This document shows, one piece after another, positions 42,681 through 59,487 of a DNA stretch of 59,608 nt. A program made the translations under genes and the position numbers. The notes beneath the pieces are model-generated. The model did not search any database and was not told the origin of the DNA. It saw only the letters and a program-made list of their open reading frames with translations. Source of the stretch: Planctomycetota bacterium (GTDB taxonomy: Bacteria; Planctomycetota; UBA1135; GCA-002686595); assembly GCA_039029355.1 (NCBI GenBank), contig JBCCGI010000051.1, forward strand, positions 1-59,608. Reading direction: 5' to 3'. Within the stretch, counting starts at the first letter, position 1. Each line of letters starts with the position of its first letter.

Positions 42681-42703
42681 GCCACCGACCTCCATCACAG
42701 CCG

Positions 42704-42744: not shown

Positions 42745-42779
42745 GCCTTCCAGAATCCCCAGCCACCCGCTACGATCCC

Positions 42780-43214: not shown

Positions 43215-43286
43215 AGCCCGAGCCCGCGTGTAAGGAAGGGCGCGAGCCCGAGCCCGCCCGAAGGAAGGGCGCGAGCCCGAGCCCGC
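43214..43286. repeat. Intergenic tandem direct repeat: 26-nt unit AAGGAAGGGCGCGAGCCCGAGCCCGC in 2 full copies plus a leading partial copy (period ~29).
   Basis: Seen directly: copies at 43232-43257 and 43261-43286, partial GAGCCCGAGCCCGC at 43214-43227. Confidence 0.8.
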
Positions 43287-43553
43287 GCCCGGCGACAAAG
43301 CCTCCGGTGGTTGCCCACCCTTGGCACCTCCCGAGTTGCCGGTCTAGGAGGTCGCCGGGCGCGGACCCGAGCTCGGCCCCCGGGCCAAGCCCCCCCGGAG
43401 GAGCCTGCGCTCCCCCCGGACTTTGGCCGCGGAGGACGTTTCGTCCGGGCCGTGGTCTGCCGCGCGCTCCGGATAGTTCTGCGGCGGGCGCTTTTTTCCG
43501 CTCCCGAAAGCAGTGACGATCGGGTTTCGGGTCTTCCGGACGGCCGGGATAGG

Positions 43554-45836
43554 ATGTCGCCGTCCATGATGCCGCTCCTCCGCGGGCTCCGCCCCTCGCT
43601 CCTTGTCCCCCTCCTCGCTCTGGCCGCGTGCGGAGGCGGTGCCGAGCCGGCCGGCGGGCTCGTGCACCTCGAGCTTCGACGCGAAGACGGAAGCTCGCAC
43701 ACGCGCGCGCTCGACGAGGCCGTCGCGCGCATCTCGACCCGGCTCGACGGCTCCGAGGACGGCCCCTGGCGGCTCGTCGAAACACCCCAGGGCCCGGCCC
43801 TGACGCTGGCCGGCCCCATCGATGCCGAGCTGCTGCGGCGGATCGAGCTCGAAGCCTCCTTCCCCTCCCCCACCCAGGTCGACGTGAAGTGGCCGCTGCC
43901 CGACGGTGGCGAGGGCTTCCTCGTCACCTCGTTGATGAACGCCGAGCTGACGACGCGGCACCGCCTGCAGCTCGGCGGGCGCAAGGGCTGGAACGGGACG
44001 ATCGAGCGCCTCTCGCTGCGCCTGACCGAGCCCGGCGAGGGCTACAAGCTCGACCACATCCGCCTGGCGGCGGACTCCCCCGACCCCGGCTGGGAGCCGC
44101 TCGACGGCGACCGCGGCGACTGGGGGCTCGTGGCCCTCGGCCAGGAAGCCCACCGCGCCTGGCCGGCTTCGCTGGGCGTACCGCTGGTCGCGCGCGCCCC
44201 GGCGCCGGCCGGCGCGCGGCTGCGCGTGCTGGCCGCACCCGCACGCCGTCCGCGCGCGCCGTGGACCTTCCGCGTGCTGGCGCGCGAAGCGGGCGGCGGC
44301 GACTGGACCGAGGCGGCCGCGCGCGAGGTCGACGGCACCGGGCAGCGGTGGGTCGAGCTCGAAGCCGACCTGGCCGCCTTCGCGGGCGACGAGGTCGAGC
44401 TCCGCTTCCTCGTCGAGGGCGAGGCGCCGGGCGTCGACGCGCCGCGGCTCGACGCCTACTGGGCGTCGCCGGCGCTCTCCGGCGAGCGACCCGCCGACCG
44501 GCGCCCCAACGTCGTGCTGGTGACCCTCGACACGACCCGCGGCGACGTCCTCGGCAAGGGCTGGACGCCCAACCTGGATCGCCTGGCCCAGCGCGGCACG
44601 CTCTTCAGCAGCGCCTACGCAACGACCAACTCGACCATCCCCTCGCACGCGTCGATCTTCACCGGGCTGCCCCTGGAAGAGCACGGCGCCGTCGGCAACC
44701 GCCACGCCTTCCAGCCGCAGAACCGCACGCTGGCCGAGCGCCTCCGCGGCGCGGGCTACCACACGGCCGCGGCGGTCAGCGTCAGCCTCCTGCGCCCCGG
44801 CTTCGGCTTCGGCCAGGGCTTCGAGCGCTTCGAGCTGCCCCACGAGGACGCCTTCCGCGACGGCGCACCGGCGACCGACGCGGCCTGCGGCTGGATCGAC
44901 GAGTGGAGCGCGCAGGACACGCCGTTCTTCCTGTGGCTGCACCTCTTCGACCCGCACACGCCCTACGGCCCGCCGGACGACTTCGTTCGCGACCTCTTGG
45001 CCGAGCGCAGCCTGATCCCGCCGCCCAGACGCGTGGATCCGGCGACGAGCCCCGAGTGGGACGTGCCTCCGACGCAGCTCGACTTCGTCCTGGGCACGAC
45101 CAACCGCGATCGGGTGATCTTCGAGTACTACCTCGGCATCGCCTACGCCGACCACCTGGTCGGGCGGCTGCTCGAAGCACTAGAGCGCGGCGGCGTGGCG
45201 GAGGACACCGTCGTCGCCGTCACGTCGGACCACGGCGAGTCGCTCGGCGAGCGCGAGTACTGGTACGAGCACGCCAACCTCTACCCCGAGGTCGTCCACG
45301 TCCCGCTGATCCTCGCCGGACGCGGCGTGCCGGCCGGCAGGTCGGTCGACGCCCCCGTGAGCCTGATCGACCTCTTCCCCACGCTGCTCGGGCACCTGGC
45401 GCTCGCGCCCGAGCCCGAGCTCGCCGGCGCCGACCTGCTCGCCCTTGCGCGCGGCGAGGCAGCGCCCGAGCGACGCATCTGGTTCCAGCTCTCCGGCCGC
45501 AAGCAGGCCGGCTTCCGCGACGACGACCAGCACTTCATCGCGACGCTCGAGGACGGGCTGTTCTGGATCTCCGGCGCCGAGCCCGACGAGGCCGGACAGC
45601 GCGTCCCGAGCTACACGACCGAGCCGGGGGGCACGAACCACCTCTACGAGCTGTCCGATGACCCCGAGCTGCAGCGCGACCTGGGCGCGGAGCAGGAGAA
45701 GCGCGCGGCCGACCTCGCCGACGAGGTGCGACGCTGGCTGTCGACGCGCAAGGCCGCGCTGCAGACGCGGCGCGAGCTGACCGCCGAGGAAGAGGCCGAG
45801 CTCCGGAACCTGGGCTACGCCGGGGACGGCAAATGA
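43554..45836 (+). CDS. Lipoprotein with an N-terminal ~300-aa unknown domain and a C-terminal sulfatase-fold (alkaline-phosphatase superfamily) domain with a non-canonical T-x-P-S-H active-site signature; paralog 1.
   Basis: Chosen over the overlapping frame 43628..45661, which is Arg-rich junk. LLALAACGGG lipobox. VVLVTLDTTRGD, YATTNSTIPSHASIFTGL (in place of C-T-P-S-R), SDHGESLGE, and HVPL sulfatase-fold landmarks. Confidence 0.75.
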   Translation: MSPSMMPLLRGLRPSLLVPLLALAACGGGAEPAGGLVHLELRREDGSSHTRALDEAVARISTRLDGSEDGPWRLVETPQGPALTLAGPIDAELLRRIELEASFPSPTQVDVKWPLPDGGEGFLVTSLMNAELTTRHRLQLGGRKGWNGTIERLSLRLTEPGEGYKLDHIRLAADSPDPGWEPLDGDRGDWGLVALGQEAHRAWPASLGVPLVARAPAPAGARLRVLAAPARRPRAPWTFRVLAREAGGGDWTEAAAREVDGTGQRWVELEADLAAFAGDEVELRFLVEGEAPGVDAPRLDAYWASPALSGERPADRRPNVVLVTLDTTRGDVLGKGWTPNLDRLAQRGTLFSSAYATTNSTIPSHASIFTGLPLEEHGAVGNRHAFQPQNRTLAERLRGAGYHTAAAVSVSLLRPGFGFGQGFERFELPHEDAFRDGAPATDAACGWIDEWSAQDTPFFLWLHLFDPHTPYGPPDDFVRDLLAERSLIPPPRRVDPATSPEWDVPPTQLDFVLGTTNRDRVIFEYYLGIAYADHLVGRLLEALERGGVAEDTVVAVTSDHGESLGEREYWYEHANLYPEVVHVPLILAGRGVPAGRSVDAPVSLIDLFPTLLGHLALAPEPELAGADLLALARGEAAPERRIWFQLSGRKQAGFRDDDQHFIATLEDGLFWISGAEPDEAGQRVPSYTTEPGGTNHLYELSDDPELQRDLGAEQEKRAADLADEVRRWLSTRKAALQTRRELTAEEEAELRNLGYAGDGK

Positions 45837-48232
45837 GTCGGCTGCGGCGCCTCGCTCCTACGCTGCTGCTGCTCGCGGCGGCCGCCTGCGGCGGAGCCGC
45901 GGGCGATCCCGCCGCGGGTGTGGTGCACCTCGACCTGCGGCTGGCCGACGGCTCGTCGCCAAGCCACGCGCTCGCCTCGGCCCTCCCCGTGCGCGAGGTG
46001 CGCCCGCGGCCGGGCGACCCCGCGTCGCTCGGTCCGTGGAAGGTCGAAGGCGGCCGCCTGGCGGGCGGCGCCGAGGGCGCGCGGCTGATCGCCGACGGCG
46101 AGGAGCCCCCGCGCTTCGTGCTGCGCGGCAAGATCGACGCGGCGGACTTCCCGCTGCTCGAGCTGATCGCCGAGACGCGCAAGCCCACCGACGCCCGCGT
46201 GCGCTGGTCGGGCGCGGCCGGCTCCGGCGAGCTGGCGATCGAGGCACAGCCCGACGACCGCCCGCGCCGCGTGGCCTTCGCCGTGGGCGCCGACCCGACC
46301 TGGAGCGGCACGATCGACGAGCTGTCGGTCACGCCGTCGAGCGACGGCACGGCGGTGCTCGTGCACGTCCTGCGGCTGGTCCCGATGGGCTTCCAGTGGG
46401 GCAGCGAGCCGCTGGCCGAAGAGGATCGCGCCGCCGCTGGCCAGCCGGGCGACGCGGGGCTCCGCCGGCGCGGCTACGAGTCGCGGCGCGCGTGGCCGTC
46501 GGACCTCGGGGTGCCGCTCTTCGCAACCGTCGAGCGCGTGCCCCGCGGCGGCGTGCTCGCGACCGCCGTCGCGCCGGGCAACAACGCGCTCGGCAAGCAC
46601 CAGCAGTCGCTCTTCGCCGCGGTCGACGGCCGCGAGCCGGGCGGGTCATGGCGGCGGCTCGCCACCCTCGAGCTGCCCCCCGCGCGCACGGTGATGACGG
46701 CGAGCTGGGAGCCGCTCACCTGCGACCTGAGCGACTACGCCGGCGGGCCCGTCGAGCTGCGCTTCGTCGCCGACTTCGGCGCCGCGCCGGCCCCCGATGC
46801 CGTGGCGGAGGGCGGCAAGCCCGCGCTAGAGCGCGTGCTTTGGGGCGCTCCCGAGATCGTCGGCGAGCCGCCCGCGAGCCGCCGACCGAACGTGGTCCTC
46901 GTCACGCTCGACACCACGCGCGCCGATGCACTGGGCGGCGAGTTCACGCCGTTCTTCGACCGCTTCGGCGACGACGCGGTCGTGTTCACGAACGCGTGGG
47001 CGTCGTGCAACTCGACCACGCCCTCGCACGCTTCGATCCTGACCGGGCTCCACGTCGAGGAGCACGGCGCGATCACCAACCGCCACCTGCTGGGCCCCGA
47101 GGTGCGCACGCTGGCGGAGGAGCTGCGCGGCGCCGGCTACCACACCGCCGCCGCCGTGAGCGTGCCGCACATCCAGGCCGGCGTCGGCTTCGGCCAGGGC
47201 TTCGACGCCTTCGCGCTGGCGCAGCCGGGCGCGGAGGTGAACGGCGCGTACGCCCTGCGGTGGGTCGAGCGTTGGACCGACGAGTGGAGCGAGCTGCCGC
47301 CACGCCCGTACTTCCTTTGGGTGCACCTCTTCGATCCGCACACGCCCTACTCCCCGCCCTCGGAGTGGGTCAAGGAGTTCCTCGCCGAGAGCGGGCTGTC
47401 GCTGCCGTCGAAGGAAGCCGATCCCGCGACCATTCCGGTCTACGTCGGCCCGCGCCGGCCGGAGAACGTGCCGCTCGAGAAGCGCTGGCTCGCGGGCGTC
47501 AGCTCGCTCGAGTACTCGCGCTTCGTGTACGCGCTCGGCGTCGCCTATGCCGACCACCTGTGCGAGCAGCTGTTCGACGGCCTCGAGCGTGCCGGCCAGC
47601 TCGACGGCGCCGCGGTGTTCCTCTCCGCCGACCACGGCGAGTCGCTCGGCGAGCACAACGTCTGGTTCAACCACGCCGGGCTCTTCCGCGAGACGCTGAA
47701 CGTCCCGCTCCTGGTGCGCTTCCCGAACGGCCCGCGCGGGGTGCGCATCGAAGAGCCGGTGAGCAACATCGACATCGCGCCGACCATCCTGCGGCTCGCC
47801 GCGGTGGCGGGCGCGCCCGAGCTACCGGGCCTCGATCTGGAGCGCATCGCGCAGGGCGAGTCGCCCCCCGAGCGCGAGGTGTGGTTCGCCTTCAACGGCC
47901 TCCACCAGGCGGGCTTCCGCGATCGCGACACGCACTTCTTCACGACGCTCACCGGGGATCTCACCTACGGGGTAGCGCTCGTGGAGGAGGACGGAAAGGC
48001 CGTCCCGCGACGGCTGCCCGAGATCCCGGTCGGAACGAGCTTCCTGTACGACCCGCACGCGGACCCAGCGCTGGTGAACGACGTCGCCGCGGGGGAAGAG
48101 GGGCGGGTTGATCAGGCGCTCTCGCGCCTCGGACGCTGGCGCGAGAGCCTGCAAGCGGCCAAGGTCCAGCGGCGCAATCTGACCGCTTCGGAGGAGGCGG
48201 GCTTGGCCGGGCTGGGTTACGCGGGCGATTGA
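45833..48232 (+). CDS. Lipoprotein, sulfatase-fold paralog 2, with the same T-T-P-S-H variant signature. Translationally coupled to paralog 1 by an ATGA overlap.
   Basis: LLLLAAAACGG lipobox. VVLVTLDTTRAD, CNSTTPSHASILTGL, ADHGESLGE. Colinear with paralog 1, including the N-domain VHL(E/D)LR..DGSS and the C-terminal ...LGYAGD tail. Confidence 0.75.
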   Translation: MSRLRRLAPTLLLLAAAACGGAAGDPAAGVVHLDLRLADGSSPSHALASALPVREVRPRPGDPASLGPWKVEGGRLAGGAEGARLIADGEEPPRFVLRGKIDAADFPLLELIAETRKPTDARVRWSGAAGSGELAIEAQPDDRPRRVAFAVGADPTWSGTIDELSVTPSSDGTAVLVHVLRLVPMGFQWGSEPLAEEDRAAAGQPGDAGLRRRGYESRRAWPSDLGVPLFATVERVPRGGVLATAVAPGNNALGKHQQSLFAAVDGREPGGSWRRLATLELPPARTVMTASWEPLTCDLSDYAGGPVELRFVADFGAAPAPDAVAEGGKPALERVLWGAPEIVGEPPASRRPNVVLVTLDTTRADALGGEFTPFFDRFGDDAVVFTNAWASCNSTTPSHASILTGLHVEEHGAITNRHLLGPEVRTLAEELRGAGYHTAAAVSVPHIQAGVGFGQGFDAFALAQPGAEVNGAYALRWVERWTDEWSELPPRPYFLWVHLFDPHTPYSPPSEWVKEFLAESGLSLPSKEADPATIPVYVGPRRPENVPLEKRWLAGVSSLEYSRFVYALGVAYADHLCEQLFDGLERAGQLDGAAVFLSADHGESLGEHNVWFNHAGLFRETLNVPLLVRFPNGPRGVRIEEPVSNIDIAPTILRLAAVAGAPELPGLDLERIAQGESPPEREVWFAFNGLHQAGFRDRDTHFFTTLTGDLTYGVALVEEDGKAVPRRLPEIPVGTSFLYDPHADPALVNDVAAGEEGRVDQALSRLGRWRESLQAAKVQRRNLTASEEAGLAGLGYAGD

Positions 48233-48489
48233 CGTCGCCTTAAGTCGTTTGCCAACGACCACAAGACCGCGGCCGGCAACAAGATCGCCGCGGCCCCCTG
48301 GACACGCGGTTCGGGTCGGCTTAGCGTGGGCCTTCAGCCAATCAGAGGGGGAAGCGGACTGCTTGCACCCTGGCTCGCGAATCTGTTTCGGCTGAACTTC
48401 CCTGTCTGCACAGCCGATTCCGAAGCGCGGCCTTCTTCGGGTTCCAGCATCAGGCTTTCCGGGGATCGTTCCGATAAAAAAAGAACAAC

Positions 48490-50844
48490 GTGGCGAGTTC
48501 CAAGCTCGTCACCGTTCTGAACAACAGCCGCCGCGAAGTTCGCATCCGGCGCTGTCCAGAAAACAACCAGCCGTGGAGGGCCGCCTTGCTGTTTGGCCTT
48601 GAGAGCCGGGCAAACGCACGGAGTCGCCGCCGCTCGAGAAGCGGGCGCAGGCGACGCGGAAGAGCGCTGGTAGTGGTTGTGGTCGTCGTTGGTTGGATCG
48701 CGCTCGGGGCGTGGATGCTCTCGGCTCTCGGTGAGCGCGACAGCACGTCCGCGACACGAGCGCTCGCAACAACGGCGAAGGAATCGCTGGCCACGGCGAG
48801 GCTGTCGGACCCCGGCATGCACTCCCGGGCCGCGGTGTGCGGCACGGTGCTCGACGAAACCGGTCCGAGGTCGCGCCGCGCCGCCGACGCCCGCCCGCCC
48901 TCCACCGGACGCTCGCGCCTGCATGTCGCCGTGCGCCAGGAGAGCGGCGCGCCGGTGCTCGAAGGCCGCATCGAATGCCATTGGGCCGAAAGCCCACACG
49001 TCGAAGGCGACCCCTTCTACCGCACGCAGGAGGTGAAGATCGACGGACCGACCACGACGATCGAGCTGCCGTCGTGGGCGCTCGGGGCGCTGGTCGTGGC
49101 GTCCCCCAAGAGCGGGCTGCCCGGCAAGGCGCGCCTCGACAACCTGCGCAATCAGAACGACCGCTGGCACGCCGAGGGCGAGACCGTCGACTGGGACGTC
49201 GAGGTCATCGTCGATTCGGGCCTGACGTCGGTGCTCGAAGGCAGCGTCACGGTCGACGGCGAGGAGCGCATCCCCGACGGGCTCACCGTCTTCCTGATCC
49301 AGGACCCGCTCGACCAACCGCGCGAAGCGACGTCGATGGAGGAGTTCTACGCGACCAGCCCGCAGATCGGTTGGGTCGACCACGAGCGCGCGACCTACCG
49401 CGTCTGGCCGGTCGCGCCCAAGGCGCGCAAGCTGCGGGTCGGAAGCCGCGAGACCAAGCCGCGGACGATCGAGCTCTCGACGTTCGAGCCGAGCGGCGGC
49501 GTGCGGCGCCTCGACCTGCACCTGGAGACCGGGGGTCGACTCGAGCTGACCGTCGTCGACCGCGAAGGGTCTCCTGTCGCGGGGCTGCCGATCGAGTTCA
49601 CGCACGAGTACCTGCTCCGCAGCACGTTCACGCGTCAACACTACGACCGGCACCGCGTGACGACGCAGACCGACTCCGACGGCCGGGCGATCCTCTCCGG
49701 CCTGACGCCGAAGGGCTTCGTGCGGGCGTACGCACCCAGCCGCCAGTTGGGGCGGGAGCTCTGGAGCGGACGCGTCCCCTCGGACCTCGACGGCACGCTC
49801 CACGCCCAGGCCGAGTATCGGACCGACGACGTGCCGTCGCTCGTCTGGGGCCGGCTGTCCGATCTGCGCGCGGTGGCGGAGTCGCTGTCGCCCGAGGTCC
49901 ACGTCGTCGCGCTCGGCGCGCCCGGCGTAGCCGCTCCGTTCCCGGTCGCGCGCGACGAGGAGCAGGGCACGTGGAGCTGCGCGGTCCCCGCCGGCGACTA
50001 CGCGGTCTGGCTGCAGAGCGACGAGGGACGCGCGTCCGGCACCGAGTTCGCGTCGGTCGAGGCGGGCGGCGAGGCCGCGCTCGAGCTCCTGGCGCTGCCG
50101 CGGCGGCTGCTCGCGCTGCGTTGGCTCAACGCCCCCGAGGGCGCCACGCTGGAGTGGCGCGGGCGCGCAGAACACGGCCCGCTCGAAGCGAGCCGGCAGA
50201 TCGCGCTCGACGAGCCGCACGGGGAGACCTTGGTCAACGTCGCGGCTCTCCAGGCGCTCGACGTCGAGGCGCACGTCGGCGAGCGCTTGCTCGTGCGCCG
50301 ACGCCTGACGGGCTCCTTCGACGACCCCATCGAGGTCGACTTCGCCGCGCTCGCGGATGTCGACTTCCACCTATTCCTCAACGGCAAGTCCCCCGGCGGC
50401 GCGGGGTCGCTGACGGTGGTACCGCTGGGCACGGCCCGCTCCTCTTCGGTCGCGACGTACCACGAGACCGCCCAGGCCGGGCGCGCTCGCATCGCGATCC
50501 CGGCCGACGCGAAGGAGCTCCTCTATCTGTACTCCGACGCGCAGGAAACCGCGTTCATCTGCGGCGTGACGACTCTCGTCGCTCCGCTCTCGGATGAAGC
50601 GGCCCGCGCGTCGGTTCGACACTGCATCGGCTGGCAAGGCGGCCTCTACTCCGCGAAGCAGCTGCTTCCGTCGGAGGACGACTGGATGGAGCTCGTCGCG
50701 ATCGGGGACACCGACGTGACGTCGCTCTTCGGCAAGAAGATGCGGACGATTCGAGCACAGGACCTCACGGCGCCTCCGGGAGAAGGCGCCGAGATCCTGG
50801 TCGATCTGAAGAACTGCTCGTGGGTTCTTTCAAAGAACTTCTAG
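48490..50844 (+). CDS. Large (~784 aa) membrane-anchored extracytoplasmic protein of unknown function. Its 5' part has atypically low GC and low-GC3 codons; the start is uncertain.
   Basis: Arg-rich N-terminus then TM (ALVVVVVVVGWIALGAWMLSAL) then ~700 aa of beta-rich sequence. GC3 becomes genome-typical only after ~48870. Alternative starts at 48713 or 48819. Confidence 0.5.
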   Translation: MASSKLVTVLNNSRREVRIRRCPENNQPWRAALLFGLESRANARSRRRSRSGRRRRGRALVVVVVVVGWIALGAWMLSALGERDSTSATRALATTAKESLATARLSDPGMHSRAAVCGTVLDETGPRSRRAADARPPSTGRSRLHVAVRQESGAPVLEGRIECHWAESPHVEGDPFYRTQEVKIDGPTTTIELPSWALGALVVASPKSGLPGKARLDNLRNQNDRWHAEGETVDWDVEVIVDSGLTSVLEGSVTVDGEERIPDGLTVFLIQDPLDQPREATSMEEFYATSPQIGWVDHERATYRVWPVAPKARKLRVGSRETKPRTIELSTFEPSGGVRRLDLHLETGGRLELTVVDREGSPVAGLPIEFTHEYLLRSTFTRQHYDRHRVTTQTDSDGRAILSGLTPKGFVRAYAPSRQLGRELWSGRVPSDLDGTLHAQAEYRTDDVPSLVWGRLSDLRAVAESLSPEVHVVALGAPGVAAPFPVARDEEQGTWSCAVPAGDYAVWLQSDEGRASGTEFASVEAGGEAALELLALPRRLLALRWLNAPEGATLEWRGRAEHGPLEASRQIALDEPHGETLVNVAALQALDVEAHVGERLLVRRRLTGSFDDPIEVDFAALADVDFHLFLNGKSPGGAGSLTVVPLGTARSSSVATYHETAQAGRARIAIPADAKELLYLYSDAQETAFICGVTTLVAPLSDEAARASVRHCIGWQGGLYSAKQLLPSEDDWMELVAIGDTDVTSLFGKKMRTIRAQDLTAPPGEGAEILVDLKNCSWVLSKNF

Positions 50845-50858
50845 AGAGGGAGGTATCG

Positions 50859-51254
50859 ATGAGCAAGGCGACCTTTTCCATCCGTAGGACCGTTCTGGCC
50901 GGACTGATGCTGCTGGGCGGCGTCGCGTCGCTAGGGGCGGCGCTCCAGGAGCCGGTCGGCAGCCGCGGCGATGAATGCACGCCCGCGAGCCAGACCGCGG
51001 ACCCGCCCGCCTGCGACACGCCGGCGCTGGGCTGCAACCTGCTTTACCCGATCTGCCCCGACGGCTGCAGCGATGCGGACTGGGTCAGCGGCAAGTGCAC
51101 CGGCCCGGCCGGCGACTGCAAGAGCATGGCGACCCAGAAGGACTCCGAGATCTGCAACGACTGCCGCTGCTCGGACCTCTTGGGCGGCGGCATCTGCGTC
51201 AGCACCGGGAACTACACCTCCGGTCCGGACGAGACCGTGATGGACTGCCAGTAG
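50859..51254 (+). CDS. Small secreted cysteine-rich protein (131 aa, 12 Cys in the ~100-aa mature part).
   Basis: GGGAGG SD 5 nt before the ATG. Signal peptide MSKATFSIRRTVLAGLMLLGGVASLGAA. Cys spacing ECTP..ACDTPALGCNLLYPICPDGCSDADWVSGKCTGPAGDCKS..ICNDCRCSD..ICVST..DCQ. Confidence 0.65.
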   Translation: MSKATFSIRRTVLAGLMLLGGVASLGAALQEPVGSRGDECTPASQTADPPACDTPALGCNLLYPICPDGCSDADWVSGKCTGPAGDCKSMATQKDSEICNDCRCSDLLGGGICVSTGNYTSGPDETVMDCQ

Positions 51255-51341
51255 GGCGACCGACTCGACGTGCGCCGGGCCGGTGGCGTATCGCCAGCGG
51301 CCCGGCCGTCCCCCACGCCCCCACGGGCAGGAGGTATTGCG

Positions 51342-52388
51342 ATGCGGGCGGCCGCCCCCAGGCTCCCCCGCGGCCCGGCGGCCGTGGGGATCGTCGCCCT
51401 AGCGCTCGCGCTCCCCGTTTGGCCGCAGCAGGCGGTTGACGGAGAGGACGACGCGCTCTGGACGACCCACTACGAAGACACCGAGCCGCTCTGGCAGCTG
51501 GTGGCTTCGCACCGCGGCGAGAGCTTCGCCTTCCGCTACCGGCGCGTCGTACGCGACTGCGGCAAGCCCGACGAGGGGCCGGAGCTGGTCCACGACGGCC
51601 TGGTCCGGTTCCGCTTCGAAGGGGACGGGATCTGGCTGCACGAAGCCTATGTCGACCTCCAGTCGCAGAAGAACCGCCAGCCGGTGGCGCGGGACCGCCA
51701 GCACTTCTACTCGCTGCTGACGGGCGAGCACACGATGCACATGCGCCGCTCCGGCGACTTCAGCAGCGAGATCCGCCTGCGGTACTGGAGCACGCTCCCC
51801 GATGTGCTCTTCCTGGCCGCCGGAGCGCTGGGCTCGCGCGCGCTCTCCGATCGCATCGCCGCGGGGCGCGACGGGAGACGCTTCGAGCGGCACGACAATC
51901 CCCGGACGGGCTCGACCTCGATCGTGGTGCGCAACGACGCCGGGCAGCCCGTGGAATACGCGGAGGTGATCCCCGGAGCCAGCGGCGACCCCGCTCTGAT
52001 CCTGCAAGGCGTCTACGGCGACCGCGACTGCGTCGAGGAGGCGCTGGTGTTCGCCGCCGTGGAGAGCGACTGGACCGAGGCCGACTTCGACCGCGTCCCC
52101 GCCCACGCGCGCCTGCTCGACTTCCGCGGCTCGCGCCACGCGGTCGCAGCGGTGCACACCGACCGACCGCTGAAGCTCTACGAGGCCGGCTCGTGGGCCT
52201 CGCGCGTCCGGGCCGAGGGGTTGGCCGAGATCGGCGTGCTGCGCAGCGAGCCTACCACGGCCCCGGCTCCGGCCGAGCCCACGCCGGCCCGGCCCGAGCC
52301 ACGGCGCCTGTTCGCCACGTTGGTCGGCGCGGCCCTGCTCTTCGGGCTCCTCGTCCTCGTCACCCAAGCCAAGAGGACCGCGTCTTGA
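51342..52388 (+). CDS. Secreted hypothetical protein with a C-terminal PEP-like/TM/basic tail.
   Basis: GGAGG SD 7 nt before the ATG at 51342. Signal peptide MRAAAPRLPRGPAAVGIVALALALPVWPQQ. C-terminus ...ARPEPRRLFATLVGAALLFGLLVLVTQAKRTAS. Confidence 0.6.
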   Translation: MRAAAPRLPRGPAAVGIVALALALPVWPQQAVDGEDDALWTTHYEDTEPLWQLVASHRGESFAFRYRRVVRDCGKPDEGPELVHDGLVRFRFEGDGIWLHEAYVDLQSQKNRQPVARDRQHFYSLLTGEHTMHMRRSGDFSSEIRLRYWSTLPDVLFLAAGALGSRALSDRIAAGRDGRRFERHDNPRTGSTSIVVRNDAGQPVEYAEVIPGASGDPALILQGVYGDRDCVEEALVFAAVESDWTEADFDRVPAHARLLDFRGSRHAVAAVHTDRPLKLYEAGSWASRVRAEGLAEIGVLRSEPTTAPAPAEPTPARPEPRRLFATLVGAALLFGLLVLVTQAKRTAS

Positions 52389-53539
52389 TCGGCATACTCC
52401 TGTTGCTCGCCGCGGCGCCGCAGGCCGCTTCCCCGCGCGACGCGATCCTCGCCGCCGCCGGCGTCGAGCTGGTCCCCCACCCGCCCCTGGAGACCCCGAG
52501 GGTGCGCTTCCGGCCGCCGCTGGGCGAGCCGATATCGGGCGTCATGGGCCCCCTGCGCGACGGGTCGCACGCGGTCTTCGCGACGCTCCCGGCGGCGGAC
52601 TGCTACCTGGACAATCCACGCCCCGCGGTCGCCACCGAGGGGCCCGAGTGGGTCGCCGCCTACCCCGCCGCGCTCGCGCGGCCGGAGCGGCTGGTGCTGC
52701 GCCAGAGCGGGCGGAGCCCGGTCGCGGAAGGCGCGCTCGCGGTCGGCGCGGCGCGAGGGGCCCGAGCGATCACGCTGCGCGAGGCCCGCACCGGCTGCGC
52801 GATGGAGCACCCCTTCAATCTGCCGCTCGCCCTGGGCCGCGACCCGGCGACGCTGCCCTTCCGCTGGAACCTGCGGAGCGCCCTGGACCCCACCGGCGCC
52901 TACGTCCTGCTGTACGCCGACGACGGCGTCGAGGTCGCGGTGCCGATCCAGCTGGAGCCGCCCGCGTGGGGCCCCGCCGCCCCGGACGCGCTGTCGCTGG
53001 GCGAGCCGGAGGGAACGCCCCTCGCCGTGGAAGGGCGCGGCGGCTTCGCGGTGCGCGCGGCGAGCGTGGTGCGGGCGCCGCTATGCGTCGCGCTCGAGCC
53101 GCTCGACGGCCTCCGCTGGCGCGTCGTCGAGACCGCGGCGGCGCGCCTGCCGCACGCCTGCGCCCACGTCGAGATCCACGCCTGGGGCGACGAGGCGGAG
53201 CCGTACCGGCTCGATGTCCGCCTCGAGCATCCGCCGCTGGCCGGCGCGGAGGGAGAGGCGCTCCTCTCCGGCGAGCTGGTGGCCGGGGAGCGCGTCCTGC
53301 TCGGCCGCCTCGACGGCGCCTGGCGGGTGGTGCACGCCGACCGCGTGACCGGCGCCGAGGACGTGTTCCGCGCCGCGGGCGGGCGCATCGTCCAGGAGCT
53401 GACGGTCCCGCCCGTCGGCGCGGGGCCGCCGGAGCTGGATTGGCTCGCGGCCGACGGAGAGGAGACGGCGCTGCTGCGGGCGACGGTCCAGCCCGACTGG
53501 CCGAAGGCCGCCGAGGCCTGGCGCCGGGCCGGGCGCTGA
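52386..53539 (+). CDS. Secreted hypothetical protein (TTG start overlapping the upstream stop).
   Basis: TTG/stop overlap (cgtcTTGAtc). Signal peptide (M)IGILLLLAAAPQAASP. No known motif. Confidence 0.5.
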
Positions 53540-53578
53540 TTGGCTTCGCCGCGCGGCGGGCCTATCCTCGTCCGCCGC

Positions 53579-55264
53579 ATGGCTGCTCCCCCCTCCGCCC
53601 GCTCGCTGGTCACGCCCGCTTCGCTGCGGGTGATGGAGCGCGTCGCGGTCGCGCTGCTGCTCCTGGCGGCCTTCGTGCCGCGCGTGCGCGACTTCCGGGG
53701 CACCTTCGACCGCGAGTTCGAAGGCTTCCAGGGCACGTTCTTCGCGAGCTGTGCGCTCAACTACGAGCGCCTCGGGCTCGGGCACCTGGGCGGGTACCCG
53801 TCGCTCAACATCGACCTGCCCGAGGGCGACTACAAGGACGGCGCCTACATCTACGGCAACCACCCGCCGACGGTGCCGCTCCTGACGTGGGCCTCGCTGA
53901 AGCTCCTGGCGCCGGAAGGTTGGGGCGAGGCGTGGCGTGAGTTCGAGCCGCCGGAGGGGATCGAGCCCTACGTGCGCTTCCCCTTCCTGGCGCTGCACAT
54001 GCTGGGGCTCTTCGCCTTCTGGTGGGCGCTGCGCCAGGCGTCGGGGCCACGCGTGGCGCTGCTCGGGTTGGCGGTGCTGGCGATGACGCCGGTGTCGGTG
54101 CTGTACGCGCAGCTCGTCAACTACGAGAACCCGTCGCTGCCGTTCATCTGCCTCGGCTGCGGCTTCCACGCGCGCTACCTGCGCGGGATGTCGGGGCCGA
54201 ACCTGCTCGGCATGGGGCTATCGTTCGCCGCGGCCGCCGCGGTGACCTTCGCGCCGCTCTTCTTCGTGCCTCCGCTCGTGCTGCAGGCGCTGCTGCGCCG
54301 CGGCTGGCGCGGCGCGCTGCGACCCGCGCTGGCCGTGGGGCTCTGCGCAGCGCTGCCGATCGCGGTCCACGGGCTGTGGGTGCGCGCGGCGCTGCCGAGC
54401 GAGGCCTCGGAGTCGGTGCTGGCGCGCGCCGCTCACCTGATCGAGCCGATGTTCACCGGCGCGGAGCCGTTCGGCGAGTGGGTGCGGCGGCAGGCGGTGC
54501 GCGCCTCGTTCTTCCTCTCCCCCCCCATCGTCGCCGCCGCTCTGGGCGGGCTCGGCGTGATCGCGTGGCGGCGCCTGCGCGGAGCCAAGGCCCCCAACGC
54601 GGCGGCCGACGGCCGCGTGGAGCTGGCTCCGCCGCTCCTGCTCGGCGGCGTGACGCTACAGCTGCTCTTCTACACGCACACCTTCGACGGCGAGGGGGTG
54701 TGGGACGGCCAGACCGTGTTCCTGCTCAACCTCGCGCCGGGAGCGGCGGCGGCGGCGGCGGTGCTGCTCGACGCGCTCGCCACTCCGTTGGCGCGGCTGC
54801 GGGGCGGCGTTGCGCCGCTGGTCGTCGCGACCAGCCTGGTCGGCCTGCCCGGCATCGCGCGCGCGAACCAGGTGCGTTACCGCTGGCGCGAGCCCGGACC
54901 GCGCGACGACCCGGCGCGCACGTTCGGACCCGATGCGCCGCTGCCCGCCACGGTCGGGCGCGAGATCTCCGAGCTGCTGCCGCCGGTCTCGGTCGGCTTC
55001 TATCCGGAGGCGCTCGGCTTCAACCAAGCCGCGTCGTGGTACGCCTGGCGGACGCTGATCGACGTCGAGAAGGAGACCTTCGGCGCCGGCGTCGGGATCG
55101 CCACGCTGCTGGGACTGGGCGAGCGGCCGCGCTTCCTGCTCATCCCCAAGGACCCGGCCCCCGAGGTCGAGGCCCAGGTGGGCGACGTGCACGAGCAGCT
55201 GAAGGCCGCCGGCGAGCCGTTCCGGACCTCGGAGCACTGGGAGGTCTGGTCGCTCGACGGGTAG
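53579..55264 (+). CDS. GT-C fold polytopic membrane glycosyltransferase (PMT/ArnT family 39/83-like).
   Basis: About 11 predicted TM helices. A first-loop acidic motif (DREFEGFQ...DLPEGDYKD) as in GT-C enzymes. Large C-terminal periplasmic domain. Alternative TTG start at 53540 abuts the upstream TGA. Confidence 0.6.
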   Translation: MAAPPSARSLVTPASLRVMERVAVALLLLAAFVPRVRDFRGTFDREFEGFQGTFFASCALNYERLGLGHLGGYPSLNIDLPEGDYKDGAYIYGNHPPTVPLLTWASLKLLAPEGWGEAWREFEPPEGIEPYVRFPFLALHMLGLFAFWWALRQASGPRVALLGLAVLAMTPVSVLYAQLVNYENPSLPFICLGCGFHARYLRGMSGPNLLGMGLSFAAAAAVTFAPLFFVPPLVLQALLRRGWRGALRPALAVGLCAALPIAVHGLWVRAALPSEASESVLARAAHLIEPMFTGAEPFGEWVRRQAVRASFFLSPPIVAAALGGLGVIAWRRLRGAKAPNAAADGRVELAPPLLLGGVTLQLLFYTHTFDGEGVWDGQTVFLLNLAPGAAAAAAVLLDALATPLARLRGGVAPLVVATSLVGLPGIARANQVRYRWREPGPRDDPARTFGPDAPLPATVGREISELLPPVSVGFYPEALGFNQAASWYAWRTLIDVEKETFGAGVGIATLLGLGERPRFLLIPKDPAPEVEAQVGDVHEQLKAAGEPFRTSEHWEVWSLDG

Positions 55265-55276
55265 CGCGGGCCGTGC

Positions 55277-55966
55277 TCAGCCGCCGCGGAAGAGCGGCAG
55301 CATCGTGTCCTTGAGCTTCATGTACAGCTGCGCGGTAGCGCGCACGTCGCGCAGGCAGTACTCGCCGATCTCCTCGATCCCGCCGCTGCGGTACACGCGG
55401 CTGACCTGGCTCCCGTCGATCGAGCCCTTGGGGCTCTCGACGTCGAAGCGGCGGCACCAGTAGTCGAGGCTGTAATTCTCGCGCCGCGTGCCGTGGAAGC
55501 TCAGCACGTCCTGCAGGTCGCAGTGTGTGGCGAGGTCGTAGCGGTAGGGAATCAGGTGCACCGACGGCGCGATGCCGAGCTGCGCCGAGCGGATCATCAG
55601 CATCGGGCCGTCGTAGCCGCGCCCGTTGTAGGAGACGAGCTGGGGCTTCTTGCGCCCGACGATCTCCCAGAACTTCTCGAGCAGGTCGCTCTCCGAGCCG
55701 CGGAAGACGTCGGAGTTCGGGACCTTCTCCCACTCGCGCTGTGGCTCGACGTCGCCCTCGAGCAGCATCAGGCCGCGGCCGACCTCGATGTTCCACATGC
55801 CGATCGCGATCACCTTGCCGAGCCCGGGCAAGAGCGAGGTGCGCTCGGGCATGGCGTCGCGCTCCTCCTCGGTGCGGGCGCGGTTCAGGAGGTAGCCGCG
55901 GGTGATCTCGTCGACTTCCTCCCAGGCGAAGCCGGCGACCTCGATGTCGAAGGCGATGGTGGTCAT
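55277..55966 (-). CDS. Predicted RNase-H-like 3'-5' exonuclease (COG3298 / PolB-exonuclease-related family).
   Basis: MTTIAFDIEVAGFAWE (Exo I D-x-E), YNGRGYDGPML (Exo II), YCLRDVRATAQLY (Exo III Y-x3-D). Confidence 0.65.
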   Translation of the reverse strand: MTTIAFDIEVAGFAWEEVDEITRGYLLNRARTEEERDAMPERTSLLPGLGKVIAIGMWNIEVGRGLMLLEGDVEPQREWEKVPNSDVFRGSESDLLEKFWEIVGRKKPQLVSYNGRGYDGPMLMIRSAQLGIAPSVHLIPYRYDLATHCDLQDVLSFHGTRRENYSLDYWCRRFDVESPKGSIDGSQVSRVYRSGGIEEIGEYCLRDVRATAQLYMKLKDTMLPLFRGG

Positions 55967-56041
55967 AGTTGGGCGGTTCCCGCCGGTCCGCGCGGGACCG
56001 ACGGGCTCAGGATACCGCCGAACGACCGGTTGGCGAGCCGT

Positions 56042-56506
56042 CTACTCGCCGACGCCCACCGAGATGTCGGCGTCGAAGAACTCGCCGCCCGGGCAGCCGT
56101 CCTGACCCAGCGTGTAGACGACCGGGTAGGGCGCGAGCTCGCCGGCGTCGGCGAGCAGATACGGCCGCCCCCAGGGGTCGACCGGGGCCTCGGGGCGGTT
56201 GAGGTACTTGACGCCGTTCTCGTCCGGCCGGACGAGCAGCGCCAGGTTCGGCGGGCAGCCGCCGTGGATCGCGGCGTAGGCCTCTACCGCCTCGGCGATC
56301 TCGAGCACGTCGCGCTCGGCCGCCTTGCGGTTGGCCTCGATCCGTGCCGCCATCAGGTTGGGGATCGCGACCGCCGCGACGATCGACAGCCCCATCAGCC
56401 CCACCGGGATGCCCACGGCGCAGATGATCAGCGCCCAGGCCCAGCCCGGCAGGCCCGACTTGGGTTTGCGCTCCGGCCGCGCCGGAGCCTCGTATTGGAA
56501 GCTCAT
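56042..56506 (-). CDS. GspG-like type II secretion pseudopilin homolog with a non-canonical (non-prepilin) N-terminus.
   Basis: AIPNLMAARIEANRKAAERDVLEIAEAVEAY and PVDPWGRPY...YTLGQDGCPGGEFFDADI match GspG conserved blocks (VPNLM..., DPWGNPY, GxDGxxGGE). The N-terminus has a TM helix (WAWALIICAVGIPVGLMGLSIVAAVA) but no G/FTLxE motif. AAGGAGAAGGA SD. ATGA overlap with the upstream gene. Confidence 0.7.
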   Translation of the reverse strand: MSFQYEAPARPERKPKSGLPGWAWALIICAVGIPVGLMGLSIVAAVAIPNLMAARIEANRKAAERDVLEIAEAVEAYAAIHGGCPPNLALLVRPDENGVKYLNRPEAPVDPWGRPYLLADAGELAPYPVVYTLGQDGCPGGEFFDADISVGVGE

Positions 56507-58713
56507 GCCTCTTGTCCTTCTCCTTGCTCGCTCGTCCGGCGCCGCATCCAGAGCGTCGCGCCGAAGAGCAACGCCATCCAAAGCCCGCCGAGGGCGGAGC
56601 CGGAACCACCGCTCCGGTCGCGCAGCGGGCGCACCGAGCAGCCGCCGCCTCCGCCGCCGCCGGAGTTGAACGCGAACGCGTTCACGAGCACCGAGGCCTG
56701 CCCGCTGCTCGCATCGCGCACCAGGACCGAGACCTTGCCCTTGGGATGCGTCGGGGTCTCGACTTCGAGCGTGGTCGAGTCGACGACCGTGACGCTGGCG
56801 GCAGCGGTGCCGCCAAGCCCGGTGTCCGGATCGATGCCGAAGACCACCTCGGCGTCGGCCGGGAAGTCGACGCCGGTCAGCGTCACCACCGTGCCGCCCG
56901 CGGGCTTGCCCTTGCCGGGCGAGATGTCGGCGGCCTGCGGGTCGTCCTGGGCCACGTAGACGAACGCTCCGGACGCGATGCCGCTGCCGGGGTTCTCGAC
57001 CTCGAGCAGGTACGGACCGCCGGCGACGCCGCCTTCGGTCACGATGCGGACGCGCGTGGCGTCGTCGACGGTCACGTTGGTCTGGGTCACGCCGTTGATG
57101 CGGACCGACAGCGCGGGCGTGAAGTCGTTGCCGCGCAGGATCACCTCGGTGCCGCCGTCGGCGTCGCCGGACGGCGGGAACACCGACGTCAGGACGGGGA
57201 GCGCGGCCACGTCGAAGCCGTCGACCAGGCGCCCCTCGACACCGGTGGAGTCGATGACCACGACGTCGTGCGTCCCCTCGACGGTCGCGAGCGTGGTGAG
57301 CGTGATGGTGTTCTCGTCGACCACCGTGCAGCCTCCGGGGACGCCGTCACGGTAGATCTGGTCGCCGAGCACGACCCGCGCGCCGGACTGGAAGTCGGCG
57401 CCCGAGACGGTGACGAACGTGCTGCCCGCGGCGGCGCCGATGGTCGGGGCGATGGTGCTGACCGTCGGGCTCGCCGGCGTGACCTCGCAAGCCGACGAGA
57501 GCACCGCGTAGTCTCCCGAAGGGTTCGTAACCGCCAGGTCGACGTGGCCGGGGATCTCTCCCGCGGGCACCGTGATCTGGAACGAGACGCTGCCGCCGAA
57601 CCAGGACACGCTGCTGAGGGTGATGTCGGGGTCGCTCACCGAGAGCGTCGACCCCACGACCAGCCCCGAGCCGCGCACCAGGTGCCCGACCGTCTCGCCC
57701 GACACGATCCGCAGCGGATAGACGTCGAAGCCCGAGCCGATGCCCAGCGCGACGTCGGCGCCCACCGAGAGCGTGCCGAGGTTGTCCACGCCGCCCGCGG
57801 GGACGGTCGCGTTCGAGCCGTAGAACGTCGCCTCGAAGTCGGTCTCGATCACGTGACCGTCGCTCAGGTTGGCCGAGCTGACCGGAGTATCGAGCGGATC
57901 GGCGTAGACCGAATAGCTGCCCGCCTCGAGGCCGAAGATCGTGAACGCGCCCGCCACGTCGGTGAGCCCGGCCCCCGCCGTGCGCCCCGAAGCGTCCAGC
58001 GCGACCACGTGCGCGCCGGCAACCGGCGTGCTGCCCGACTGGCGCACGACCGTGCCGGTGATGCGGCCCCAGGTCGTGGACGGCGCGATCTCGCGCGCAC
58101 CCGCGATCTCGTCGAGCGACATGCTGCGGTGCAGGATGCTCGTCGGATCCACGTACGGGTACATCGTCGCGCCGGCGCAGCCCGAGTGGTCGAGGCCGAG
58201 CAGGTGCCCCAGCTCGTGCGCTCCGACGTCGCCGACGTCGAAGTGGCCCGGCTGCTGGCTGGTGGTGAAGCTGAACTCCTGCCCGTTGAACAGGATGTCC
58301 GCGTCGGTGATCTGGCCGTTCAGGAAGAACCACAGCGGCGTGACGGCGACGATCCCGCTGCCGCCGCCGAAGAAGCCCGAGCTGTTGGTCTCGTCGAACC
58401 AGATCAGGTGGATGTTGTCGGCCGCCCAGTCGGTCCGCGCCTGCTGGACGGGATCGGTGTTCTCGACCAGCGTCAGGTCCGAGCCGGGGATGTCGTTCCA
58501 GTCCTGGATCGCCATGCGCAGCGCGGTCTCGGCGCTGCCGTCGGCGATGTTGTCCGAGCCGTCGGAGTTGACGACGATGCCGACGTTGCTGGGATTCGGC
58601 CAGAAGAGCGCCGCGCCGTCGCCGTTGACGCGCAGCCGCTCGTGGGCCAGCGCCCCGGCCGCGACGGCCAGGAGAGCTCCGCCGTACGGAAGGAGAGAGC
58701 GTAGGCGGAGCAT
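56503..58713 (-). CDS. Secreted M10-type metzincin metalloprotease with a CarbopepD_reg-like domain, three IPT/TIG domains and a C-terminal Gly-rich/Cys/TM/RRR sorting-signal-like tail.
   Basis: HELGHLLGLDHS...ATMYPY (HExxHxxGxxH plus Met-turn). Repeated ...PTIGAAAGSTFVTVSGADF... IPT units. Tail NSGGGGGGGCSVRPLRDRSGGSGSALGGLWMALLFGATLWMRRR. Confidence 0.8.
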   Translation of the reverse strand: MLRLRSLLPYGGALLAVAAGALAHERLRVNGDGAALFWPNPSNVGIVVNSDGSDNIADGSAETALRMAIQDWNDIPGSDLTLVENTDPVQQARTDWAADNIHLIWFDETNSSGFFGGGSGIVAVTPLWFFLNGQITDADILFNGQEFSFTTSQQPGHFDVGDVGAHELGHLLGLDHSGCAGATMYPYVDPTSILHRSMSLDEIAGAREIAPSTTWGRITGTVVRQSGSTPVAGAHVVALDASGRTAGAGLTDVAGAFTIFGLEAGSYSVYADPLDTPVSSANLSDGHVIETDFEATFYGSNATVPAGGVDNLGTLSVGADVALGIGSGFDVYPLRIVSGETVGHLVRGSGLVVGSTLSVSDPDITLSSVSWFGGSVSFQITVPAGEIPGHVDLAVTNPSGDYAVLSSACEVTPASPTVSTIAPTIGAAAGSTFVTVSGADFQSGARVVLGDQIYRDGVPGGCTVVDENTITLTTLATVEGTHDVVVIDSTGVEGRLVDGFDVAALPVLTSVFPPSGDADGGTEVILRGNDFTPALSVRINGVTQTNVTVDDATRVRIVTEGGVAGGPYLLEVENPGSGIASGAFVYVAQDDPQAADISPGKGKPAGGTVVTLTGVDFPADAEVVFGIDPDTGLGGTAAASVTVVDSTTLEVETPTHPKGKVSVLVRDASSGQASVLVNAFAFNSGGGGGGGCSVRPLRDRSGGSGSALGGLWMALLFGATLWMRRRTSEQGEGQEA

Positions 58714-59297
58714 CAGCGGGACTCCCCCTGCGCGCGCGTCGCCTCGATCTGCGCCAGCACCTCGGCATAGGGCAGGATCGCCACGCCGTCGGCTTCGCGG
58801 ACCTCGGTCGTGCCGGGACGCACGAGGCTCAGGCCCGCCTGCTCGCGCACCAGCACCTTCTCGCCGGTCGCCGACTGCACGACGCGGAACTTGCCCTGCG
58901 CCAGGCCGATCGGCATCCGCACGCCCGAGTCGCCCGCGTCGGTCAGGAACAGCAGCAGGTCCTCGCCCGGCTTCACGCCGGGCATCCCGGCCAGGAGCAT
59001 GCCACGCCCGTCGGGCAGGATGCCGCCGGGCAGACGGATGGCCCGCACCGGAAGGTCCACGCCCTTGAAGGTGCGCTTCACGTCGAGCACGAACTCGGTC
59101 TCGATGCGGCCGTCGGGCAACTCGAGCGCCTGCGCCGACAGGACGCGCGCCTCCACGATCAGCTCGGCGCGCGCGGCGAGCTCGGGGATGTCCATTCGGA
59201 TGGCGGTCCCAGCCTCGACCCCGCTGGAGCGGTGTCCGAAGACGGCAAGGGCACAGGAGACGATGAAGAGGCCTAGGAAGGCGGCTAGGAGGCGCAT
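58713..59297 (-). CDS. Hypothetical lipoprotein, first gene of the metzincin/pseudopilin operon.
   Basis: ATG at 59297. MRLLAAFLGLFIVSCA lipobox. Stop overlaps the metzincin start as ATGA. Confidence 0.5.
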   Translation of the reverse strand: MRLLAAFLGLFIVSCALAVFGHRSSGVEAGTAIRMDIPELAARAELIVEARVLSAQALELPDGRIETEFVLDVKRTFKGVDLPVRAIRLPGGILPDGRGMLLAGMPGVKPGEDLLLFLTDAGDSGVRMPIGLAQGKFRVVQSATGEKVLVREQAGLSLVRPGTTEVREADGVAILPYAEVLAQIEATRAQGESR

Positions 59298-59487
59298 GAA
59301 GGGGAGCGAGGTGTGGGGAGCGGCGCGGGGGGGCGCCGGCCTGGGGGCCTTTGGGTTGCGGACCACCGCCGGGGAGCGGCGGCCGCGGACCTGGGCCTCA
59401 TCGACTCCACGAAACCGTCTTCTTGAGAGGGCCCCCGCGCCGCCCACAAGGTGCGGAAGGAAGTTCCGCCCCGCGCCGCCGGGCACG

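Follow-up and report, generated by a model that had tools for sequence, protein, structure and literature searches.

In Gram-positive bacteria, CnaB/transthyretin-like beta-sandwiches are arrayed in pilins and adhesins such as SpaA, BcpA, PitA, the Cna B-repeats and the B. anthracis TIE protein, which carry hallmarks including a C-terminal LPXTG signal, pilin motifs, a partner sortase gene or the thioester motif CxEQ. Sandwich arrays are also found in NOMO (of the BOS complex) and in alpha-2-macroglobulins. Bacterial protein O-mannosyltransferases (PMTs; GT39) modify Ser/Thr/Pro/Ala-rich sequence. In Planctomycetota, a diderm phylum, YTV cysteine-rich proteins have been found in cell-wall preparations (PMC8567305). 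Proteins recalling each of these groups are encoded side by side by five plus-strand genes, termed here g1 to g5, at positions 48490–55264 of contig JBCCGI010000051.1 (locus tags AAF682_205xx). The window, which is the whole stretch of 59,608 nucleotides (nt) analysed, is a chromosomal stretch of 72% G+C from a Planctomycetota metagenome-assembled genome (MAG). An initial annotation had read the five genes, together with a sulfatase-fold pair upstream, as a possible protein or glycan decoration system. The present analysis suggests instead that the locus probably consists of two separate things lying side by side, namely an accessory cassette, g1–g4 (48490–53539), and an unrelated gene of the chromosomal backbone, g5, encoding a glycosyltransferase of the GT-C type.

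The order g1-g2-g3-g4 recurs in five other sequence-verified loci, where a g1 homolog is followed by a ten-cysteine protein of about 125 amino acids (aa), a protein of about 350 aa and a protein of about 400 aa. The product sizes are 643-136-376-429 aa in locus L005/6, 709-124-351-394 aa in L007, 727-128-350-404 aa in L013, 644-127-348-395 aa in L014 and 715-136-780 aa in L009, in which g3 and g4 are fused. These loci were found via contigs encoding representatives of the g1 family, from which 8–10 kb were fetched on each side, and homology was confirmed by tblastn and blastp (E 1e-5 to 1e-56). The JGI contigs of P0012 (731-123-343-404 aa) and P0032 (759-128-787 aa) show the same arrangement on the basis of gene sizes and order only. 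The four proteins diverge in parallel (21–39% identity), and every source that names an organism assigns the cassette to Planctomycetota. A GT-C homolog is absent within 8–10 kb on either side of all five other verified cassettes and was likewise not seen near the two size-inferred ones; a sulfatase adjoins only one other verified cassette, that of L005. The gene 3' of g4 is different each time (TPR, MacB, a CarboxypepD_reg giant, a TIR/pterin gene and others). As the same four families are kept together and GT-C and the sulfatases are not, the latter are neighbours by position only, and g1–g4 very probably form an evolutionarily kept four-gene unit that is independent of GT-C. Thus, the check by gene-neighbourhood conservation that had been proposed for this locus reveals no co-conservation for the GT-C link but clear co-conservation for the four unknowns; the idea of an uncharacterized extracytoplasmic locus stands for g1–g4, whereas GT-C and the sulfatase pair fall outside it. 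Judged by their sequences, g1–g4 represent four families with no counterpart in Pfam, NCBIfam, PADLOC or PHROGs and no relative of solved structure at the sequence level. No published description of the cassette was found in literature searches, and the YTV proteins were the sole comparator to emerge from them.

The surroundings of g5 give complementary evidence. A scan of one genome per species detected two relatives of g5, both in Planctomycetota MAGs (L002, 42% identity; L003, 27%). In L002, a DedA-like gene, hppA, rsfS, a 271-aa gene on the other strand, a DUF255 thioredoxin-like gene, GT-C and a 549-aa gene are followed by genes for a PolB-like exonuclease, an M10+TIG protease and a 213-aa ortholog of a 257-aa protein of the window. 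Identities to the window are 52% for the DedA-like protein, 71% for hppA, 58% for rsfS, 42% for GT-C, 58% for the exonuclease, 48% for the M10+TIG protease and 45% for the 257-aa protein. In L003, the order is hppA, rsfS, DUF255, about 5 kb of other genes and GT-C, and the hppA and rsfS products are 61% and 39% identical to those of the window, in which hppA (40647–42680) and rsfS (42780–43214), both on the plus strand, form the left anchor of the backbone. The backbone thus compared covers 39863–43214 and 53579–59486 in the window, 3656–17096 in L002 and 7–11308 in L003. Between rsfS and GT-C, neither L002 nor L003 contains g1–g4 or the sulfatase pair. Because GT-C is syntenic in these genomes without the cassette, g5 is best placed, from gene order, as a conserved backbone gene outside the cassette, and the 10 kb from rsfS to GT-C as a variable slot. 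The DUF255 gene also lies in this slot, 13 nt upstream of GT-C in L002 and just after rsfS in L003, and is absent from the window. In this genome, the slot would be filled by the cassette and the two sulfatase-fold genes; as the cassette occupies it directly before GT-C, GT-C is probably read through from the cassette and not functionally tied to it.

The product of g5 (53579–55264, 561 aa) is a PMT_2/GT39-like enzyme of the GT-C type, as had been predicted. It scores 33.6 bits against PF13231 PMT_2 (cut-off 26.1, E 5.6e-8), its L002 ortholog scores 35.2 bits, and NCBI names it 'glycosyltransferase family 39 protein'. The protein has about nine hydrophobic segments. The motif RxRD-x4-FDREFEGFQG directly after the first transmembrane (TM) helix is invariant in three orthologs of 27–42% identity, and this acidic motif may be catalytic. 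A PMT_2 score above the gathering threshold, polytopic topology and the acidic FDREFEG after the first TM helix are shared with GT39/PMT_2 enzymes of the protein O-mannosyltransferase and ArnT-like kinds. g5 differs in that no solved PMT or ArnT chain matches it detectably in sequence, and its conserved neighbours are hppA, rsfS and, in its relatives, the DUF255 gene, but not the cassette. The start initially assigned to g5, TTG at 53540, would give a product of 574 aa, whereas public gene calls (Logan gene table; NCBI protein) use ATG at 53579; both starts are possible.

All five open reading frames (ORFs) lie on the plus strand in the order originally described. Long ORFs overlap in all six frames of this region, but the G+C content at third codon positions (GC3) is 0.89–0.95 in the five proposed frames and 0.51–0.77 in competing long ORFs, so that the former are real coding frames and not artefacts of high G+C. 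The second-position G+C of the five genes is 0.51–0.58, and the profile resembles that of flanking housekeeping genes. Reading of the DNA bears out the tight packing of the five genes. The g1 stop (ending at 50844) is followed by 14 nt, GAGAGGGAGGT, and the g2 ATG at 50859, which is thus preceded by a strong Shine-Dalgarno (SD) sequence; a second strong SD, GGCAGGAGGT, sits 7 nt ahead of the g3 ATG at 51342. The g3 stop and the g4 start share the TTGA at 52385–52388, with AAGAGGA ahead of the TTG at 52385, and the g4 TGA (53537–53539) abuts the TTG at 53540. The initial annotation was accurate on the two SDs and on both junctions, apart from a coordinate shift of about 1 nt, and on the lack of recognized families among the first four products: g2, g3, g4 and their homologs match no Pfam or NCBIfam family, and g1 matches CarboxypepD_reg only below threshold. 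PADLOC and PHROGs also contain no family matching g1–g5 or the fused g3–g4 homolog at E <= 0.01. Upstream of g1 lies an intergenic gap of 257 nt (48233–48489) with a G+C content near 0.6 versus about 0.72 for the window. No sigma-70 consensus, terminator or Rfam match was detected in it; its position and composition suggest that it is likely the promoter or 5' region of the cassette. Scans of 42–56 kb for Rfam families, promoters, terminators and repeats revealed no riboswitch, intergenic terminator or insertion scars flanking the slot.

The g1 protein (48490–50844, 784 aa, thus hardly the 'giant' initially supposed), the cassette's founding member, has a short basic cytoplasmic N-terminus, a TM helix at residues 56–80, a linker at 82–137 and about seven sandwiches at 141–784. 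In the Logan gene table, g1 begins at 48817, which would exclude the TM helix. The N-terminal basic stretch and the 23-residue hydrophobic helix are kept across the family and the helix is well modelled by AlphaFold2 (AF2), with a predicted local distance difference test (pLDDT) score of 83–90, which argues that the longer form starting at 48490 is right. An exhaustive HMMER search with g1 yielded 44 cluster representatives among 1.84 billion proteins; members are about 650–770 aa long and 20–31% identical, and all start with a basic stretch and a hydrophobic helix. The family is thus rare and fast-diverging.

The AF2 model of g1, built from a 25-sequence family alignment, has a mean pLDDT of 75.5 and comprises the helix, a disordered Ser/Thr/Ala-rich linker and an all-beta region covering 141–784. 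In this model, about seven transthyretin/CnaB-like beta-sandwiches make g1 a rod that is tethered to the membrane. The best Foldseek matches are multi-sandwich rods, including the B. anthracis TIE protein, pilins, Cna B-repeats and alpha-2-macroglobulins, and individual domains have the CarboxypepD_reg/transthyretin-like/CnaB beta-sandwich fold; at the sequence level, the CarboxypepD_reg match is sub-threshold (17 bits versus a cut-off of 32), and a profile search of the PDB with the g1 alignment gave nothing significant. Unlike the Gram-positive pilins and adhesins, g1 is anchored by an N-terminal TM helix and not by a C-terminal LPXTG signal, and shares only 8–20% identity with them. It ends in DLKNCSWVLSKNF with no C-terminal TM helix, contains no pilin motif, LPXTG motif or enzyme domain, and has seven cysteines, none of them in a CxEQ thioester context. 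No sortase was found among its Pfam-scanned neighbours. The resemblance to NOMO and alpha-2-macroglobulin arrays is at the domain level only (whole-chain TM-scores of about 0.1), and differs in the lack of sequence homology and of a thioester or bait region, in far fewer domains and in unrelated partners.

Members of the g1 family also occur in other settings. Two or three tandem paralogs without g2–g4 are present in L012 (8205–12874), on JGI 3300047160 contigs (P0017, P0018 and P0032) and in L015 (6886–9532). The subfamily of P0015, P0017, P0038 and P0040 seems to be of the tandem-paralog type only. A metagenome scan with a five-member g1 subfamily returned three loci, of which the one informative locus carries tandem g1 paralogs, and a metagenome scan with the three closest g1 members returned no relative. 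In L008 (2649–10094), IS21-type (IstB) and Mu-transposase/rve genes immediately precede a lone g1 homolog on a 954-kb Planctomycetes contig, which suggests that the family sits in mobile or rearranging regions. The L007 cassette is flanked on both sides by opposite-strand genes for proteins of about 1130 aa that consist of CarboxypepD_reg repeats, the domain type of g1 (4354–7767 and 13002–16379).

The g2 gene (50859–51254, GC3 0.92) encodes a 131-aa protein whose mature domain, about 95 aa long and preceded by a signal peptide, contains 12 cysteines. Alignment of six homologs showed ten invariant cysteines (C40, C52, C59, C66, C80, C87, C102, C104, C113 and C130, including a CxC), and the initiator Met is the sole other invariant position. 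These features indicate a small secreted protein with a predicted five-disulfide scaffold and a freely varying surface. Its positional homologs in L007 and L013 are detectable at E 1e-5 to 1e-8, whereas a search of 5.8 billion clustered proteins returned g2 only. Neither g2 nor three of its homologs matched a Pfam family at E <= 0.1, YTV included, and the PDB profile search yielded no significant relative. Like the YTV proteins, g2 is exported, Cys-rich and restricted to Planctomycetes; unlike them, it lacks a YTV Pfam match, is much smaller and has a distinct ten-cysteine pattern with a CxC.

In the g3 protein (51342–52388, 348 aa, GC3 0.92), a signal peptide precedes a domain of about 270 aa, which a Pro/Thr-rich linker connects to a C-terminal TM helix and its basic tail. 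Homologs in L005, L007, L013, L014 and L009 were aligned at E 1e-5 to 1e-18 and share the invariant residues R65, R67, D85, G86, R89, W149 and D274; no Pfam, NCBIfam or PDB match was obtained. The tail of the window copy (RPEPRR, a hydrophobic helix, then KR) resembles a PEP-CTERM/exosortase signal and had been described as PEP-like. However, none of the five homologs compared has the PEP tripeptide in its tail; in the four that are unfused, the TM helix and basic residues are retained. The NCBIfam PEP-CTERM model (TIGR02595) gives no match at E <= 0.1. A PEP-CTERM sorting signal was therefore rejected, and the tail, which is present in all split forms and absent from the L009 fusion, reads as a plain C-terminal membrane anchor.

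The g4 protein (52385–53539, 384 aa, GC3 0.95) starts with TTG, and about 100 variable residues separate its short hydrophobic N-terminus from an all-beta region at 103–370. Of the export features previously assigned, the g1 TM helix, the signal peptides of g2 and g3 and the TM-basic tail of g3 hold, but the g4 signal is weak, consisting of 10 hydrophobic residues with no basic n-region. As for g2, the search of 5.8 billion clustered proteins returned only g4 itself; homologs in five loci align at E 1e-8 to 1e-21 and share P232, C234, H257, C259, H282, E302 and R320. The AF2 model, based on a four-row alignment, is weak (pLDDT 53 overall, 70–88 for most of 300–370), and its Foldseek matches are generic Ig/ASH arrays; residues 103–370 are probably a beta-sandwich region, and the weak model suggests three Ig-like sandwiches. 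Fold modelling, which had been proposed for the 784- and 384-aa proteins, thus resolved sandwiches in g1 and gave a weak result for g4, and in neither did it reveal an enzyme fold or a glycosylation-related feature. The g3 and g4 alignments had no significant match in profile searches of the PDB, and profile–profile comparison of g3 and g4 with g1 showed no relationship (probability <= 0.5%).

The two genes are invariably coupled. Each of the five split cassettes has a g3 stop and a g4 start that overlap by 1–10 nt, and in L009 the N-terminal part of a single 780-aa protein aligns to g3 and its C-terminal part to g4, with no TM helix in between. The single N-terminal signal and the absence of an internal TM helix in this fusion place both domains on the same, extracytoplasmic side. 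Also, the invariable coupling or fusion favours a 1:1 unit.

These features can be combined in a model of the cassette. All four products would be exported or membrane-tethered and would act on the extracytoplasmic side. g1 would be held in the cytoplasmic membrane by its N-terminal helix, from which a flexible linker and then the sandwich rod would project. g3, anchored by its C-terminal helix, and g4 would be produced 1:1 and act as one unit, which is one polypeptide in some genomes, and g2 might be a soluble ligand or cap that is presented or held by g1 and g3/g4. From this arrangement we tentatively infer that the four proteins assemble, at the outer face of the cytoplasmic membrane, into a membrane-tethered complex that binds or acts as a scaffold and has no enzymatic activity, a proposal that could well prove wrong. 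The rare, patchy and sometimes multi-copy occurrence, the location in a variable slot and the uniformly fast divergence are consistent with an accessory role in the envelope and not with core metabolism; recognition, adhesion, protection and spacing are candidate roles.

Several observations weigh against this account. The g1 family also occurs without g2–g4, as tandem paralogs in L012 and in the contig of P0017 and as a lone homolog beside insertion sequence (IS) elements in L008, and g1 is evidently able to work without these partners. In g4, the invariant His/His/Glu/Cys set might serve catalysis or metal binding, and with a g4 model of pLDDT 53 an enzyme in g3 or g4 is possible. As for the separation from g5, g4 and GT-C are 0–39 nt apart, with nothing resembling a terminator in between; in this organism they may be co-transcribed, and GT-C may opportunistically glycosylate the Ser/Thr/Pro-rich linkers of g1 and g3. 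In addition, the comparison rests on two GT-C orthologs, five other sequence-verified cassettes and two more known by size and order only.

On present evidence, the cassette is one more conserved hypothetical operon and would not surprise a specialist: its domains are of known folds, although its novelty at the family level is high. A recurrent four-gene unit is now set apart from a misleading neighbour, which spares glycoproteomics on a wrong hypothesis. Its architecture is clear, comprising an anchored rod, a coupled or fused pair and a ten-cysteine mini-protein, and the Rosetta-stone fusion predicts a physical complex. As Planctomycetota envelopes are poorly understood and lineage-specific exported proteins are many, the cassette is a reasonable and testable entry point. 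A bolder view, considered rather unlikely, is that g1–g4 are an undescribed Planctomycetota-specific envelope system in which the rod, the paired or fused g3–g4 with its His/His/Glu/Cys site and the hypervariable five-disulfide g2 work together. If so, its function would be one with no described counterpart, for example a spacer or recognition device that spans the periplasm, which is unusually large and invaginated in this phylum, or a polymorphic surface recognition or defence module.

The fixed ten-cysteine scaffold of g2, with its otherwise unconstrained sequence, could also be that of a secreted disulfide-rich toxin, bacteriocin or signal, for which g1, g3 and g4 would be maturation, immunity or receptor partners in a polymorphic competition or recognition module. 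The rare, patchy, fast-diverging and, in some contigs, multi-copy nature of the family, the IS elements in L008 and the variable slot of the window are in keeping with such a module. However, no transporter, peptidase or known immunity family was found in or beside the cassettes; PADLOC, PHROGs, Pfam and PDB searches gave nothing, and the bacteriocin match (E 3.6) is not significant. Moreover, the four proteins diverge at similar rates, so that g2 is not singled out. This explanation is therefore held to be unlikely.

The sulfatase-fold genes directly upstream bear on a further explanation, in which the cassette is a glycan-capture accessory of sulfatases and the sandwich arrays of g1 and g4 serve as envelope binding sites for sulfated polysaccharide. 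sulf1 (43311–45836, PF00884 E 4e-43) and sulf2 (45833–48232, PF00884 E 3e-36) are both on the plus strand, and a sulfatase also lies immediately upstream of the L005 cassette and another about 5 kb downstream of the cassette on the JGI 3300047160 contig. Yet no sulfatase or glycoside hydrolase adjoins the cassette in L007, L009, L013, L014 or the contig of P0012. Sulfatases are very numerous in Planctomycetota genomes, and chance adjacency is therefore to be expected. The nucleophile motif of sulf1 and sulf2 is S-T-[IT]-P-S-H-A-S (S-T-I-P-S-H and S-T-T-P-S-H), in which Thr and His replace the Cys/Ser and Arg of the formylglycine-sulfatase motif C/S-x-P-x-R, and no carbohydrate-binding module family was matched. 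Glycan capture is accordingly considered improbable. The motif supports the Thr nucleophile that the initial annotation had assigned to this pair, and sulf1 and sulf2 may be Thr-nucleophile phospho- or sulfo-ester hydrolases or transferases, not formylglycine sulfatases. In L002 and L003, the sole sulfatase-fold match is distant (about 28%) and lies on the opposite strand about 6 kb downstream of GT-C in L002. From these comparisons, the pair appears to share the variable slot with the cassette and not to be co-conserved with it.

sulf1 and sulf2 are tandem paralogs with a 4-nt overlap and 71–76% nucleotide identity in three blocks, and each has an N-terminal extension of about 350–400 aa with no Pfam match. 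Directly after rsfS, at 43209–43296, a 29-nt unit, AAGGAAGGGCGCGAGCCCGAGCCCGC, occurs in two to three tandem copies, and a 30-nt inverted partner of 83% complementarity lies 54 nt downstream of these repeats (43351–43380), ahead of or inside the region annotated as the sulf1 start.

The decoration system originally proposed would unite the five genes and the sulfatase-fold pair, with GT-C moving a polyprenyl-phosphate-linked sugar onto g2 or other exported proteins. The co-directional, tightly packed genes with no terminator-like site between g4 and GT-C, the bona fide PMT_2/GT39-type g5 with its conserved acidic motif after the first TM helix, and the Ser/Thr/Pro/Ala-rich linkers of g1 and g3, which by analogy are of the putative acceptor type of bacterial PMTs, are all compatible with it. 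The comparative data do not bear it out: GT-C is near none of the five verified or the two size-inferred other cassettes, both GT-C orthologs keep the same backbone neighbours with neither the cassette nor the sulfatase pair, and only one other verified cassette, that of L005, adjoins a sulfatase. The decoration system is thus very unlikely. That g1–g4 are chance ORFs of a 72% G+C genome, with GT-C alone real, might be suggested by the long overlapping ORFs in six frames and by the g2 and g4 self-matches in the 5.8-billion-protein search, but was rejected as virtually inconceivable given the GC3 confined to the proposed frames, the same-order homologs in five other loci with significant pairwise E-values and the confident g1 model.

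The remaining genes of the window fit an ordinary chromosomal context, with Tex, EF-G and HMG-CoA reductase genes surrounding those for a CHAT-domain protein of 873 aa (27111–29732), a large WD40 propeller protein (20045–21925) and a B12-binding radical SAM enzyme (35394–37052). The backbone around the slot reads DedA-like, hppA, rsfS, variable slot, GT-C, a second variable segment, exonuclease, M10+TIG protease and 257-aa protein. To the right of GT-C, on the minus strand, lie the genes for the PolB-like 3'-5' exonuclease (55277–55966), a GspG-like pseudopilin (56042–56581; T2SSG E 4e-12), the M10+TIG metalloprotease (56503–58713) and the 257-aa protein (58713–59486); these assignments come from Pfam and NCBIfam. 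The exonuclease, metalloprotease and 257-aa genes follow GT-C in the same order in L002, where the GspG-like gene has no counterpart at that position. The GspG-like gene and the metalloprotease ORF share 79 nt, at the annotated 5' end of the former and the 3' end of the latter.

The M10 metalloprotease has three IPT/TIG domains, a terminal GGGGGGGC motif, a hydrophobic helix and an RRR tail, and matches the NCBIfam model for myxosortase-dependent metalloproteases. Its L002 ortholog (14269–16455) has a similar tail, consisting of GGGGGC, a hydrophobic stretch and MRR. This tail may be a MYXO-CTERM-like sorting signal in Planctomycetota.

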